Shown here: piece by piece, positions 27,644-36,578 of the stretch | Numbering within the stretch: the stretch's first letter is position 1 | Layout of the letters: every line of letters starts with the position of its first letter | NCBI GenBank assembly: GCA_001783595.1 | Contig: MFMW01000005.1 | Location: 18,377-57,402 of the forward strand | Origin: Candidatus Kuenenbacteria bacterium RIFCSPHIGHO2_02_FULL_39_13 | GTDB lineage: Bacteria; Patescibacteriota; Patescibacteriia; UBA2196; GWA2-42-15 | Direction: 5' to 3' | DNA length: 39,026 nt | Notes under the pieces: generated by a model | The model's database searches: none | What the model was told of the DNA's origin: nothing | Seen by the model: only the letters and a program-made list of their open reading frames with translations | Position numbers and translations under genes: made by a program

Positions 27644-27704
27644 TGTCATCGCGAGCGATCCGCTCACCTTTTGAAAAAAGGTGAGGGAGAGCGTCGCAAT
27701 GACA
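27644..27704. repeat. Collapsed GTCA-type REP doublet holding a CTCACCTTTT/AAAAGGTGAG hairpin
   Basis: TGTCATCGCGA...TCGCAATGACA outer arms; inner 10-bp inverted repeat at 27663-27685. Confidence 0.7.
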
Positions 27705-32332: not shown

Positions 32333-33925
32333 ATGGCTGCTTTTCCCAACGCTATTGCCAACTGGCTGGACAACTATTGCGCAGTCATTGCCAGCCAAAA
32401 AGAAAAAACCCCAGGTGCCACTGTTGAAGTGAGTGATGCCGCTGGCAAGCTGGCTTTTATTTATGAAAAAATCAGAAATACCGTTGACTATAAAGACGAC
32501 CATCTCTTACGGAAGCATGCCATTGCCCGCATGCTCAAGCGCTTAGCCGTCCCGGGCGCCAAAGGCTCAACCATTGCCTTGCCATTGGTTGAAGAATTAA
32601 TTCGGGCAAGATACCTGCCCAACAAAGCCGTCTTTGATATGTCTGTGGAGCAGATTCGTCATGCCATCAATAAATATATTGTGATTTACAATTCAGCAAT
32701 TGATAAAAATTATAACTCCCGAGAATTAAGAAAATTTTATGATTGGCTGATTCATCTGGCCGCCTGTGAAATAGAAGAAATCTTAGTTCCCGCCAGAGAA
32801 ACTTTAATTACCGTTGATGCCATGCATCGGGTCGTCAGACAAAATGTTATTTTAGACGGCAATTCAGGGCTTGATCCAATTGATCAAAATATTCAAATAT
32901 ATATCGCCGTTCTAAAATCCCTGATTAAAGCCGACGAGATGACAATCAACTATTTTCTTTTTAAATACTATTTTCCAGATTGGCAGAAGTTAACGCTGGC
33001 TCAAGTTGAAAAGCTGGTCGGGCAAATTTGGCAGATTAAATATCTAATTCAAGCCCACGCCGTTTATCATTTAAATGAAAAATTAACCCACGAATTTAAA
33101 AAATATGCCGTTGTTTTCTGGATACTGCAAGATATTATCAGCCAAAACCCCGGCCAGTTTCAGAATATTTTTGCTTCAAGAGAACTCCTGACTGAAGAAA
33201 TTAAAAAAGTCTGCCATAAAAAATATAAAAGCATTGGCAAAAAAGTCCGCACAGCCATTGTCCGTTCAGTTATCTATATCTTCCTGACAAAAATGATTTT
33301 TGGTCTTTTACTTGAATTTCCATACGATTATTTCTTTCTAGAAAAAGTCCAATGGCTGCCGCTCTCAATCAATGCTCTTTTCCCGCCAGTGCTTATGGCC
33401 GCCATCGGTATGAGCATCAGGACGCCCAAAGAAGACAACACCCAAGCCATCATCGCTGAAGTTGACAACATTGTTTATTGCAGTCAGGGCAAAGAACATC
33501 GTGTCAAAATCAGACAGCCAAAACATGGTTTTGGTTTCTACTTATCGCAAACCATTTATGCCATTCTCTATCTTATTTCTTTCGGTTTGGTTATTTACGG
33601 TCTTGCCCAGCTGCTTTTCAGTTTTGCGAGTATGATAATTTTTATCTTTTTTCTGACCATGGTCAGCTTCTTTTCCCTGCGCATCAGAAAAACCGCTGCC
33701 GAGCTGATTATTCTGGAACAGCGGGAAAGATTTTTAACTGTTATTTTTACTTTTCTGGCCATTCCTGTTTTGCGCGTCGGCCGCTGGATTTCAGTTCATT
33801 CGTCAAAAATCAACGTCTTTATTTTTATGCTTGATTTTTTTATTGAAACCCCGTTTAAAATTTTTATCCGCATTTTTGAAGACCTAGTGGTCTTTGTTAA
33901 AGAAAAAAGAGATGAGATGCTCTAA
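32333..33925 (+). CDS. Conserved hypothetical membrane protein
   Basis: 530-aa ORF with a soluble helical N-terminus and several C-terminal TM helices; operon context. Confidence 0.7.
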   Translation: MAAFPNAIANWLDNYCAVIASQKEKTPGATVEVSDAAGKLAFIYEKIRNTVDYKDDHLLRKHAIARMLKRLAVPGAKGSTIALPLVEELIRARYLPNKAVFDMSVEQIRHAINKYIVIYNSAIDKNYNSRELRKFYDWLIHLAACEIEEILVPARETLITVDAMHRVVRQNVILDGNSGLDPIDQNIQIYIAVLKSLIKADEMTINYFLFKYYFPDWQKLTLAQVEKLVGQIWQIKYLIQAHAVYHLNEKLTHEFKKYAVVFWILQDIISQNPGQFQNIFASRELLTEEIKKVCHKKYKSIGKKVRTAIVRSVIYIFLTKMIFGLLLEFPYDYFFLEKVQWLPLSINALFPPVLMAAIGMSIRTPKEDNTQAIIAEVDNIVYCSQGKEHRVKIRQPKHGFGFYLSQTIYAILYLISFGLVIYGLAQLLFSFASMIIFIFFLTMVSFFSLRIRKTAAELIILEQRERFLTVIFTFLAIPVLRVGRWISVHSSKINVFIFMLDFFIETPFKIFIRIFEDLVVFVKEKRDEML

Positions 33926-35168
33926 AAAAACAATCCAATACATTTTAAAATCATTGGCCAAGGCAATCTTAAAAAAATATCAGCCTGATGTTATCGGCAT
34001 CACCGGTTCTGTGGGCAAAACCTCAACCAAGATGGCCATTCAAACCGTTTTAAAAAATGATTTTAAAGTCCGCGCTAGCCAAAAAAGCTATAATACCGAA
34101 ACTGGCGTGCCATTGACTGTTATTGGCGCGGATAATCCGGGCCACGATATTTTTGGCTGGCTGGCCGTGTTTTTAAAAGCTATATTTTTGATTTTTGCTC
34201 GCGATAAAAATTATCCGCAAATTTTTATTCTGGAAATGGCCGCTGACCATCCGGGTGATATTGAATATCTGACTGATATTGCCAGGCCAAAGATCGGCCT
34301 CATCACTTCAGTCGGCCCGACCCATCTTGAATTTTTTGGCTCTGTGGCCAACGTAGCCAGAGAAAAAAGCACCATGATTACCAGTCTTCATACTACTGAT
34401 TATGCCGTGATTAATAACGACCAAAAGACATTAGCGGAGCTAGCCAAAAAAACTAAGGCTCAACTTTTAACTTATGGCTTGAAGCAGGCTGATTTAACTG
34501 CCAGTGATATTAAATTTAATCAGGATAGCGCTGGCCTTTATTTTAAGATAAATTATAAATATGATAGCGCTAGCGTAAATTTGCCTAATATGTTGGGCCG
34601 GCCAGTCGTCTATGCGTTTTTGGCCGCCAGCGCGGTTGGCATTATCTATCATCTTGACCTGAAAAAAATTGCCCAGCGGCTGGAACATTTTGAAAATCCA
34701 CCGGGCCGCTTGAATTTATTGCCCGGCATTAAATGCACCCGTATTATAGACGACTCATATAACTCTTCCCCTCTGGCAGCCAAAGCTGCTTTGGAAACAT
34801 TGAGCCAATTAAAATGCGCTGGCAATAAATTCGCAGTTCTGGGCGATATGCTTGAACTTGGCGATTATACAAAAAAAGCCCACCAAGAAATAGGGGAGTT
34901 GGTTGCCAAGCTGGCAATAGATTATCTAATTACCGTGGGCGAACGTTCTCACCATACGGCTGAATCAGCCAAAGAATTCGGCATGAATCCGGATAGAATT
35001 TTTAGTTTTGACAATCCGGAAAACGCCGGCTGTTTCCTCCAAGAGCGCATTGCAGAAGGCGATTTAATCCTGATTAAAGGCTCTGCCGCTATGTCTATGG
35101 AGCGCATCACCAAAGAAATAATGGCCGAGCCAAAAAGAGCAGGTGAACTGTTAGTTAGACAAAAATAA
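33912..35168 (+). CDS. murF: UDP-N-acetylmuramoyl-tripeptide--D-alanyl-D-alanine ligase
   Basis: GITGSVGKTSTK, N.E.GVPLT, IDDSYNSSP, LGDMLELG, LIKGS; exact start uncertain. Confidence 0.93.
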   Translation: MRCSKKTIQYILKSLAKAILKKYQPDVIGITGSVGKTSTKMAIQTVLKNDFKVRASQKSYNTETGVPLTVIGADNPGHDIFGWLAVFLKAIFLIFARDKNYPQIFILEMAADHPGDIEYLTDIARPKIGLITSVGPTHLEFFGSVANVAREKSTMITSLHTTDYAVINNDQKTLAELAKKTKAQLLTYGLKQADLTASDIKFNQDSAGLYFKINYKYDSASVNLPNMLGRPVVYAFLAASAVGIIYHLDLKKIAQRLEHFENPPGRLNLLPGIKCTRIIDDSYNSSPLAAKAALETLSQLKCAGNKFAVLGDMLELGDYTKKAHQEIGELVAKLAIDYLITVGERSHHTAESAKEFGMNPDRIFSFDNPENAGCFLQERIAEGDLILIKGSAAMSMERITKEIMAEPKRAGELLVRQK

Positions 35169-35179
35169 AAGTTTGATTT

Positions 35180-35339
35180 TGGTAGCCCGTAGGGGAATCA
35201 AACCCCTTTTATCAGGATGACCCCTCACCTTTTACCGCCACGGGGAATTGAACCCCGGTTACCAGGATGAGAACCTGGCGTCCTAACCATTAGACGATAG
35301 CGGCAAAAGGTGAGGGGCTAATCATTAGACGAACGGGCC
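35180..35339 (-). pseudogene. Disrupted outer tRNA-Glu-like gene (5' part 35318-35339, 3' part 35180-35220)
   Basis: Acceptor stem GGCCCGT/ACGGGCT+ACCA and T stem intact; 12 nt of the D/anticodon arm replaced by a 97-nt insert; D-loop GG changed to GA, T-loop TTC to TTT. Confidence 0.8.
35233..35304 (-). tRNA. tRNA-Glu(CTC), no encoded CCA
   Basis: GCCGCTA TC GTCTAATGGTTAGGAC G CCAGG TTCTCAT CCTGG TAAC CGGGG TTCAATT CCCCG TGGCGGT A folds as a cloverleaf. Confidence 0.92.
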
Positions 35340-35342
35340 GAA

Positions 35343-36578
35343 TTACTTGAACATTAAAAGCTGTGGGTTAATGAGCATTATCACCCCCAGTATCAAAAGC
35401 AAAATGCCGCCGATTAAATGCGAATATTTTATATATTTATTACTGCTAATTAAAAGCTGCCAGGTAAATCCAGCTATCAAAAGCACCGCAATATCGTCCA
35501 GCATATAGAAAAAATCATAAGTCAGCAAATAGAGATAGTAGCCGATTTTAGATAAATTATTTTGTGACAGCACCTGCGTATAAACCGCGGGAATACCGGC
35601 TGAACAAAGCAATTCAATTAAATTAACGCTAAAGGCCACCAATGCCACGGCAATTATTATGGCCAAAACCGATTTTTTTTGTATGGCGCGTTCCAGTCTG
35701 GCAATTAGTTTATTTTTAGTCGTTGCTGAAGTTACTTCGCAAGTCAATGCCGCCTGCTTTCTTTTTTTATAAAAATCATTCAGAAAATATATGCCCACCC
35801 CGACAGCCAGAATTCCAATCAGAATTTTGACCGCTGCCAGATAACCGACAAATAAAAAAGTATTAAACCAAGCTGTTAAAAACAGGAAATATGATAGGCT
35901 AGAGGCAATGATAAAAGTGCTGCCCACCAGCCACAGCTTTTTCTTTGAGCCAGTATTAATTAAAAGCGTAATTAAAACAGCCAAAGCCCACATAGAGCAT
36001 GGATTAAAGCCGTCTAATGTGCCCAAGATCACTGTTAGCAAAGGCAATGACAAATTTTTCAAATTAATCTCGCCAATCAGCGGATATTTTATTTTTTCCC
36101 CTATTGGAGATGCTGGTATTGGTTCGCTGCCGCCAGTATTATCCATCTTGCTTTTTACAATATATATATCCAAGAGCTGTTTTATCTTGGCGCCGGTCGT
36201 ATCTTCACTGCTAAAACCGAGCACCAGTTCATCGCCAATCACAGTGACTGGCACAGAGCCAGTTGCTTGCCCGCTTTTTTCTTGTGTCACCTGCAGTAGC
36301 AGCTGATAGTTTGCCTTATCATTCCAAGTTTCAAAGTTTAACCAGTCAATTTCCGGATAATCGTCTTTTATTTTTTGCAAAAAAATTGCTTCGTCATGGC
36401 AATGCGGACAGCCATCTCCCCAGAAAAAATAGACCGGCAGTTTTTCACTTTTTTGCGCCAACTGCGCTTGGCTCTCATTGGGCGCGTTAAGAGCGGCTTG
36501 GGCAGTCCCTGTATTAAAAAATACTCCCACTGCCAATAGGATAGTTAAAAACAGGCTAAATATAACAATCTTTTTCAT
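35343..36578 (-). CDS. Thioredoxin/glutaredoxin-like domain fused to a DsbD/CcdA-like membrane domain
   Basis: Signal peptide, CPHC, SVP cis-Pro loop, TM region with DGFNPC and ELLC. Confidence 0.8.
   Translation of the reverse strand: MKKIVIFSLFLTILLAVGVFFNTGTAQAALNAPNESQAQLAQKSEKLPVYFFWGDGCPHCHDEAIFLQKIKDDYPEIDWLNFETWNDKANYQLLLQVTQEKSGQATGSVPVTVIGDELVLGFSSEDTTGAKIKQLLDIYIVKSKMDNTGGSEPIPASPIGEKIKYPLIGEINLKNLSLPLLTVILGTLDGFNPCSMWALAVLITLLINTGSKKKLWLVGSTFIIASSLSYFLFLTAWFNTFLFVGYLAAVKILIGILAVGVGIYFLNDFYKKRKQAALTCEVTSATTKNKLIARLERAIQKKSVLAIIIAVALVAFSVNLIELLCSAGIPAVYTQVLSQNNLSKIGYYLYLLTYDFFYMLDDIAVLLIAGFTWQLLISSNKYIKYSHLIGGILLLILGVIMLINPQLLMFK

Follow-up and report, generated by a model that had tools for sequence, protein, structure and literature searches.

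A tRNA-Glu gene nested within a tRNA-Glu gene: probable overwriting of a resident tRNA gene by a palindromic, tRNA-carrying element

How does a complete tRNA gene come to lie inside another gene for the same tRNA, and which of the two supplies the cell? This question is raised by a locus in the genome of Candidatus Kuenenbacteria bacterium RIFCSPHIGHO2_02_FULL_39_13 (G000; 717 kb in 34 contigs, 38.8% G+C, 88% completeness), of which we analyzed a stretch of 39,026 nucleotides (nt) (contig MFMW01000005.1, positions 18,377 to 57,402; G000:C5:18377-57402), referred to here as the window; other genomes are designated G001, G017 and so on, and individual DNA loci carry L numbers. On the minus strand, the 5′ part of an outer tRNA-Glu(CUC) gene (35318-35339; 22 nt, tRNA positions 1-22, ending ..TAG in the D loop) is followed by a 13-nt left arm (CCCCTCACCTTTT; 35305-35317), by a complete but different tRNA-Glu(CUC) gene with no encoded CCA (35233-35304), by a 13-nt right arm (AAAAGGTGAGGGG; 35221-35233), the first A of which (35233) is also the discriminator base of the inner tRNA, and finally by the 3′ part of the outer gene (35180-35220; 41 nt, from anticodon-loop position 35 to the encoded CCA, ending ACCA). 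The two arms pair perfectly and form terminal inverted repeats, and together with the inner gene they make up an insert of 97 nt that contains no open reading frame (ORF). An initial annotation of this DNA, made from the sequence alone, had described the same layout, and every detail of it matches the minus strand from 35339 to 35180.

Our preferred reading, to which we assign a probability of about 0.72, is that the resident tRNA-Glu(CUC) gene was overwritten by a very small GIY-YIG inverted-repeat element in a derived, ORF-less form, and that the working tRNA now comes from this derivative. The annotation had likewise suggested a palindromic element that brought a tRNA into a homologous gene, and this idea fits all of the DNA evidence set out below: relatives with an empty site, arms that enclose other cargo, recurrent junctions, compensated stems in the inner gene and decaying outer genes. 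That the newcomer also took over the function of the old gene is what we infer from these features.

Analysis of the nest with ARAGORN, one of the tRNA finders that the annotation had proposed, calls the inner gene alone, as tRNA-Glu(ctc) at 35232-35305, and nothing else at the locus. The inner tRNA scores 62.7 bits against the Rfam tRNA model (cut-off 29), over the full model from 1 to 71. At gathering thresholds, Rfam reports tRNAs only, with no family at the arms, in the window, in seven G000 loci and in 16 arm-bearing loci. In the predicted RNA fold, the arms extend the inner acceptor stem by 13 base pairs (bp), as had been claimed, so that arms and acceptor stem (7 bp) form a single continuous helix of 20 bp; the outer acceptor and T stems are also predicted to pair. 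The minimum free energy of the nest is −80.7 kcal/mol (z = −6.8), a value equaled by 0 of 200 shuffled sequences.

A nest of this kind might arise in silico if two tRNA-Glu paralogues were fused through their common core, a concern already voiced in the initial annotation. The inner core at 35262-35272 is common to many organisms, which raises metagenome depth there more than 100-fold, and none of the Logan contigs runs through it. Each junction is bridged in three runs from two studies (X2 and X4 from one, X5 from the other): in each, one contig spans 35000-35262 and another 35272/35276-35520, with 0 differences, and each side holds shell, arm and inner sequence in one piece (we refer to the two parts of the outer gene as the shell). 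Moreover, the two arms are complementary to one another, both flanks are collinear with those of G001, and the same architecture appears in the separate assemblies of G019 and G002 and, with other tRNAs, of many genomes. Its recurrence in independent assemblies makes a chimera extremely unlikely.

The origin of the shell can be read from relatives in which the site is empty. The locus was compared by BLAST with 40 relatives, and matching DNA was then fetched. In G001, which belongs to the same genus, and in G017, from another family of the order, the two shell parts lie 12 nt apart within ordinary uninterrupted tRNA-Glu(CTC) genes with an encoded CCA. G001 is collinear with the window on both flanks (88.7% identity over 1653 nt and 91.3% over 1324 nt), and its uninterrupted tRNA-Glu gene, sought in the murF-flanking locus as the annotation had proposed, lies between the same two genes. 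In the window, these are a co-oriented upstream ORF of 411 amino acids without Pfam match (35343-36578, minus strand; 91.3%), whose stop codon precedes the shell by 3 nt, and a convergent Mur ligase gene downstream of the nest (33894-35168, plus strand; PF08245 and PF02875; 88.7%). Shell and G001 gene are identical at 22 of 22 and 39 of 41 positions in the 5′ and 3′ parts, and differ at only 2 of 63. The 12 nt between the equivalent parts in G001 read GACGCCAGGTTC, which is also the sequence of positions 23-34 of the inner tRNA. This bears out the earlier claim that 97 nt replaced 12 nt of the outer gene: the cassette took the place of shell positions 23-34, from the 3′ strand of the D stem to the anticodon loop, and there is no target-site duplication at this nest, 12 nt being deleted and nothing duplicated. 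The tRNA-Glu site is thus empty in G001 and G017 and filled in G000, G019 and G002.

The annotation had also read sequence changes in the outer loops as mutations. The changes are present (A19 and U56, in the D and T loops respectively), but they are not signs of decay, since the intact tRNA-Glu(CUC) genes of G001 (L037:1944-2018), G017 (L038, ~1451-1525) and G007 (L039:1544-1618) share them. In standard tRNA numbering, we take A19-U56 to be a covarying replacement of the G19-C56 elbow tertiary pair and a trait of the lineage. The comparison with its orthologues indicates that the shell is the native resident tRNA-Glu(CUC) gene. Separately, G001 carries 321 extra bases with a small ORF of ~70 amino acids between the tRNA and Mur ligase genes (L037:2027-2347), which are not found in G000.

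Could the outer gene still be in use? The initial annotation offered, as an alternative, a composite tRNA-on-tRNA precursor. In the version considered here, the 160-nt transcript would free the inner tRNA, and the outer pieces, joined by the arm helix and the acceptor stem, would then serve as a tRNA, or a molecule like one, in two pieces and with its CCA encoded. In favor of this, the CCA and both outer stems (acceptor and T) are intact, the shell has diverged little from the G001 gene, and in two other nests, Arg(GCG) of G000 and Ala of G008, the outer tRNA is complete except for the insertion. However, the shell in the window lacks the 3′ strand of the D stem, the 5′ strand of the anticodon stem and anticodon base 34, and its halves, when joined, yield no tRNA call by ARAGORN, whereas the G001 gene used as a control is called. 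Elsewhere, truncations or additional interruptions, differing from case to case, affect the shells of G019, G002, G020, G007, G009, G181 and G061: an insertion lies in the T loop of the G019 shell, for example, whose acceptor stem is also mismatched, and in G002 the 3′ part of the shell and the right arm are gone. Such varied degradation implies that no outer function is conserved. In addition, RtcB (PF01139), the RNA ligase that would rejoin the pieces, was not found in the 88% complete G000 assembly. A precursor that needs its outer tRNA is therefore improbable, and the comparisons point to the resident gene being, by now, a dead shell.

The inner gene is of another type than the shell. In its acceptor stem and its D and T loops it matches, at 88-96% identity, the ordinary tRNA-Glu genes that stand free in eight relatives; these have the anticodon CTC or TTC, and most of them encode CCA. 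An alignment of ten such tRNA-Glu genes displays double compensatory changes in 9 of 22 stem pairs, and every stem pair is kept in the nest-borne inner copies of G000, G019 and G002; the 26-44 contact beside the anticodon stem is unpaired in two of these three. These patterns indicate that the inner gene is foreign in type and under constraint. It is also the sole tRNA-Glu(CUC) gene called in the G000 assembly.

What brought it there is suggested by the arms, which are members of a repeat family. With up to one mismatch, the 13-nt arm occurs 13 times in forward and 14 times in reverse orientation in G000 (27 in all), compared with 0 and 1 for the reversed control sequence, and exact 12-nt arm sequences number 19 in G000, 17 in G019 and 0-3 in each of 39 other relatives. 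The arms are not chance matches. They form 13 pairs in G000, of which six enclose loops of only 2-7 nt and three enclose 43-103 nt of unrelated sequence; the cargo of the others is tRNA-Glu(CTC), tRNA-Ala(TGC), tRNA-Asn(GTT) and a 282-nt segment in the 16S rRNA gene. The arms therefore do occur elsewhere with cargo, the opposite of the finding that the initial annotation had named as grounds for abandoning its idea. In loaded copies, the stem runs on for a few base pairs into the cargo through copy-specific pairs. At the single variable arm position, T-A, G-C, C-G and A-T pairs are all observed (in G000 and public genomes), and this constant pairing argues that pairing of the arms is under selection. 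Elements are also found nested in one another's loops. The arms of the nest are the terminal inverted repeats common to the other G000 copies, and a longer, protein-coding partner with the same ends exists.

The window itself contains a second, empty arm pair with a 3-nt loop between ORFs (27660-27688, or G000:C5:46036-46064). This copy sits inside a longer palindrome with a GAGCG direct repeat on both sides, and a near-identical site is present at G000:C25:14809-14838. In G019 (L029-L036), a conserved sequence of 38 nt, which has a small hairpin of its own, lies between the arms of most pairs; TTGACA, a −35-like box and often the duplicated target, follows these pairs.

Nests with the same architecture recur, both within G000 and beyond it. 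Two further G000 nests on minus strands have the same arms as the Glu nest: an Ala(TGC) nest, in which the shell ends ..TAG and resumes at anticodon-loop position 33, and an Asn(GTT) nest with a 3′ shell remnant. A second, G+C-rich arm family (CCCGCCCGCC.. / ..GGCAGGCGGG), found at G000:C24:25300-25470, C27:670-870 and C27:18500-18690 and in L071, L072 and L074, encloses Arg-GCG, Ile-GAT, Arg-TCG and Ala-TGC genes within shells of the same tRNA. The members of this second family in G000, again on minus strands, hold Arg(GCG), Ile(GAT) and Arg(TCG), and in the Arg(GCG) nest the insertion into the otherwise complete outer gene lies at D-loop position 21/22. The Glu nest of G019, a genome from another family, has its junctions at positions 22 and 35 as in G000, with a compensated arm variant; that of G002 is decayed. 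Ala nests with second-family arms are present in G007, G008 and G009, and a decayed Ala nest with first-family arms in G020 shares its right junction with G000. Thr(CGT) nests occur in G181 and G061; the class-level pattern search that yielded them demanded TAG before the arm, so their common TAG left junction is not independent evidence.

A scan of public genomes (one genome per species, cargo of 61-99 nt; 80 loci among the matches listed) returned at least 46 full arm pairs, and a tRNA gene lies inside 9 of the 46 among the matches listed (Trp and Pro twice each, and Val, Leu, Glu, Lys and Thr). By record titles among the matches listed, the arms occur in many lineages of the Candidate Phyla Radiation and in genomes labeled Planctomycetota, Bdellovibrionales, Hydrogenedentota, Gammaproteobacteria and WOR-3. 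The flanks of the nests inspected align to an inner tRNA of the same type, being remnants of the same tRNA, and the junctions inspected map to three loops: D (positions 16-22), anticodon (32-38) and T (52-58). A deletion that starts at position 23 and reaches ~33-34 recurs in Glu, Ala and Thr nests. The possibility that such arms are the normal flanks of all G000 tRNAs was rejected: a leader-trailer stem of at least 8 bp within 10 nt is found for only 5 of the 32 tRNAs called by ARAGORN. Carriage of the arms by phages is likewise unsupported, as all eight arm matches in a scan of viral contigs are on one strand only and none forms a full palindrome.

These data bear on whether the tRNA arrived together with its arms. 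An empty hairpin might have hit the D loop or anticodon region first, and its loop might afterwards have received a tRNA copy, either through template switching or through gene conversion with another arm-flanked tRNA as the donor; the element would then never have travelled with a tRNA. Empty hairpins with the same arms are common, as the six small-loop pairs of G000 illustrate; lone hairpins occur at position 22/23 of tRNA-Glu genes in G008; the elements do enter one another's loops; and in one Lys nest (L117) shell and inner tRNA are nearly identical over 52 nt. On the other hand, the inner and shell tRNAs of the window are of different sequence types, and the Glu nests of G000 and G019 agree in arm type and at both junctions while a closer relative of each (G001 and G017) is empty, as would fit the spread of a ready-made cassette. 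Furthermore, the arms lie 0-12 nt from the tRNA ends in all nests observed. We consider capture in situ unlikely, albeit with some residual weight.

Two observations made alongside the nests concern other unusual tRNA genes. A third palindrome (TTYAAAAGCAACAGTGTTGCTTTTRAAC) lies at the boundary of variable loop and T stem in dead Ile and Ala shells of three genomes (G000:C27, ~700-730; L069, ~1430-1460; L074, ~640-670), where it resembles an added long extra arm. At G000:C11:8779-8902, a tRNA-like gene has an extra D-loop segment and an anticodon-loop insert of ~40 nt; it is called by ARAGORN only when introns are allowed, and scores 25.7 bits with Rfam, below the cut-off.

The protein-coding partner was found in G000 itself. 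The 16S rRNA gene (C34:8912-10689) contains a 306-bp insertion (G000:C34:9357-9662; L009) in which arms that match those of the nest except at the outermost pair enclose 282 nt encoding an intact 86-amino-acid GIY-YIG protein (PF01541, E = 1.1e-16). A scan of metagenomes for the G-C arm variant with 265-295 nt of cargo returned at least 120 such stretches, compared with a handful expected by chance (a rough estimate); the counts that follow refer to the 80 loci among the matches listed. A homologous ORF of ~85 amino acids is present in 71 of 81 arm pairs. Direct repeats of at least 4 nt lie immediately outside the arms at 27 of 60 distinct sites, whereas shuffled flank pairings give 4.6% (maximum 15.8% in 1000 shuffles). 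The modal length of these repeats is 4 nt, with TTGA seven times, TCAA five times and TTTA three times. In a sample of 19 loci picked by eye, and biased for that reason, 13 lie in 16S and three in 23S rRNA genes and one abuts RNase P RNA. Several homologous elements (L221, L255, L235 and L240 among them) apparently occupy the same 16S position as the G000 insert, as judged from flanks compared by eye. In-silico removal of the 71 GIY-YIG elements restored a tRNA in 0 of 71 cases, so the ORF-bearing form is not simply seated in intact tRNA genes. This evidence indicates that the arms are the terminal inverted repeats of a widespread family of very small elements, of which the full form is ~320 bp long and codes only for a GIY-YIG nuclease of ~86 amino acids.

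Several further GIY-YIG loci deserve mention. G000 has six GIY-YIG ORFs. Four of them lie against a tRNA gene, and their reading frames run on into the tRNA and end within its D loop. These small ORFs, directly 5′ of complete tRNA genes, are at G000:C25:1764-2200, C26:15995-16349, C23:19480-20071 and C16:1-330; the tRNAs 3′ of them are Ser-TGA, Ser-GGA, Glu-TTC and one further tRNA, and the stop codon is TAA or TAG. Upstream of at least the ORFs on C25 and C16 lie a perfectly duplicated 5′ part of the tRNA (37 nt long for Ser-TGA) and G+C-rich hairpins, and Glu-TTC is followed by a dead 3′ part that has a CCA and contains two hairpin inserts. In L219 (550-844 and 71-582), a metagenomic GIY-YIG element bounded by these arms extends over the 5′ end of an RNase P RNA gene; L225 and L272 have flanks in common with L219. 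G000 also contains one reverse-transcriptase ORF of 349 amino acids (G000:C16:40420-41466; L196:1291-2337), which adjoins the IF-2 gene and is closest to group II intron reverse transcriptases, below every NCBIfam cut-off; it was considered in connection with a possible RNA-mediated capture of tRNAs.

The preferred reading, overwriting by a tRNA-carrying derivative, can be put as a series of steps. A 97-bp cassette of two 13-bp arms and a complete, different tRNA-Glu(CUC) gene would land in the resident gene, and the GIY-YIG protein would act in trans on the arms. Cargo and destroyed gene being the same isoacceptor, the insertion would be tolerated, and tRNA-carrying derivatives may persist in tRNA genes because their cargo complements the damage; the outcome would be horizontal replacement of a tRNA gene. 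The promoter and terminator scan of 34900-35700 gave counts within the shuffle range. The position of the upstream stop codon, 3 nt before the shell, suggests that the nest is probably transcribed with the upstream ORF, or directly following it, or from a promoter inside it. Stems of about two helical turns define the substrate length for RNase III, and the insert is bounded by a predicted stem of about that length, made up of the arms and the inner acceptor stem. RNase III would thus be the probable enzyme to open the 20-bp helix, after which RNase P and a 3′ nuclease may trim the inner tRNA and a CCA-adding enzyme may complete it. G000 encodes RNase III, a PolyA_pol/CCA-family enzyme and RNase P RNA.

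A number of points weigh against this reading. We infer the expression and maturation of the inner tRNA from DNA alone (the 20 sequencing runs listed include no RNA run, and the four examined are of DNA), and RNase P may be hindered by an acceptor stem that is lengthened by 13 fully paired bp. No single Logan contig covers the whole nest. The inner gene need not be essential, since G000 also encodes tRNA-Glu(UUC), which might read GAG, and at 88% completeness a second tRNA-Glu(CUC) gene could be unassembled. The 12-nt deletion in place of a target-site duplication is not predicted by simple transposition, and 24 of the 60 metagenomic sites among the matches listed have no direct repeat. The GIY-YIG protein, which at 86 amino acids has no DNA-binding or strand-transfer domain, is tied to the arms by co-occurrence only. 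A mechanism in which the nuclease cuts the empty allele sequence-specifically gives no obvious immunity, as the inner tRNA has the 12 nt of the target with near-identical neighbors. Finally, the constant match between cargo and shell could reflect selection, homology-dependent insertion or capture in situ.

How does the nest compare with known systems? Bacterial miniature inverted-repeat elements and repeated palindromes include the Correia elements, whose RNA is cut by RNase III. Like miniature inverted-repeat elements, the nest family is short, ORF-less and multicopy, with terminal inverted repeats and some intergenic copies, and it has a longer protein-coding partner with the same ends and short direct repeats beside many copies. 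It differs in that the only ORF of the partner is the 86-amino-acid GIY-YIG nuclease, which belongs to no known transposase family, in that the cargo can be a working tRNA, and in that the targets include loops of tRNA and rRNA genes. Integrative elements insert in tRNA genes by means of an integrase and restore the target with a carried copy of the displaced 3′ part; as with these, the invader would repair the essential target that it disrupts, but here an enzyme-less cassette of 97 bp supplies an entire tRNA, and the two halves of the old gene stay behind as a shell.

Closer at hand are the GIY-YIG-encoding insertions reported from rRNA genes of the Candidate Phyla Radiation (PMC11270868), in which, as far as the available text goes, all GIY-YIG proteins are in insertions unlike group I and group II introns. 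That text has 0 occurrences of either 'tRNA' or 'inverted repeat' and describes neither arms nor direct repeats; the supplements may hold details of the insertion sequences. The nest resembles these insertions, and the intervening sequences of bacterial rRNA genes, in being an insert in a stable-RNA gene with an inverted-repeat stem and a patchy distribution, and the arm family with its GIY-YIG ORF sits in 16S and 23S rRNA genes here as well. In contrast to them, the nest has a tRNA gene as its host, part of which is deleted, and carries an entire tRNA that matches this host in kind. The host RNA of an intervening sequence excised by RNase III works in pieces, whereas the host tRNA here lacks 12 nt and gives no tRNA when joined.

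Phage T4 SegB, described in the available part of PMC2330249, is a free-standing GIY-YIG homing endonuclease in a tRNA gene cluster. It shares with the present elements the association of a GIY-YIG nuclease with tRNA genes, which four of the six G000 ORFs abut, and it brings about preferential inheritance of the tRNA region. Unlike the nest, SegB is described there without inverted-repeat ends, leaves its tRNA gene uninterrupted and acts in phage co-infection, and the nest for its part has no ORF. As for the hallmarks of a homing element, the 97-bp insert contains no nuclease of its own, and it occupies the same junctions, 22 and 35, in G000 and G019 and is absent from the site in G001 and G017. 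Archaeal tRNA introns and split or permuted tRNA genes, as covered by the parts of PMC3978253 and PMC3218864 at hand, likewise involve interruption at loops and a helix formed by complementary flanking sequence. Measured against those parts, the nest differs in lying in a bacterium, in exons that are 12 nt short, in a continuous helix with no bulge-helix-bulge and in an 'intron' that is the tRNA itself. Exons of an archaeal-type intron join to a complete tRNA; here positions 23-34 are absent and ARAGORN makes no call. No compared system unites a whole-tRNA cargo, a target of the same tRNA and hairpin ends held in common with a minimal nuclease gene. In the literature searched, we found no description of a tRNA nested in a tRNA, nor of a prokaryotic GIY-YIG element with inverted repeats; the chance that the family of elements is itself new is substantial.

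A wider reading, which we advance tentatively and hold at somewhat below even odds, is that these arms are the signature of a class of minimal mobile element not described before, with 13-bp inverted repeats, one 86-amino-acid GIY-YIG gene, duplications of ~4 bp and a preference for the loops of stable RNAs. Its ORF-less, tRNA-carrying derivatives would be 'disrupt-and-rescue' cassettes, able to overwrite tRNA genes that are essential and present in one copy, since the replacement comes with them, and would drive horizontal turnover of tRNAs in small-genome bacteria; at least 6 of the ~33 tRNA genes of G000 would bear the scars of such cassettes. If this is true, mobile DNA that enters an essential RNA gene, where it usually survives by splicing or by being tolerated, would have a further route to survival, that of carrying a spare for the gene it hits, and the cassettes would be a natural counterpart of engineered cleave-and-rescue designs. 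The ~320-bp unit with its 86-amino-acid GIY-YIG nuclease would be among the smallest protein-coding transposable elements known, and a candidate for the smallest; the nuclease family is not listed among prokaryotic transposases, and with its small size the unit may for these reasons serve as a compact tool for DNA insertion. The reported but unexplained GIY-YIG insertions in rRNA genes would be tied to a defined element with ends and target duplications. For the bacteria themselves, the cassettes would explain the exchange of tRNA genes between lineages, and also why tRNA annotation is hard in small genomes, with their shells, half genes and hairpin-laden genes.

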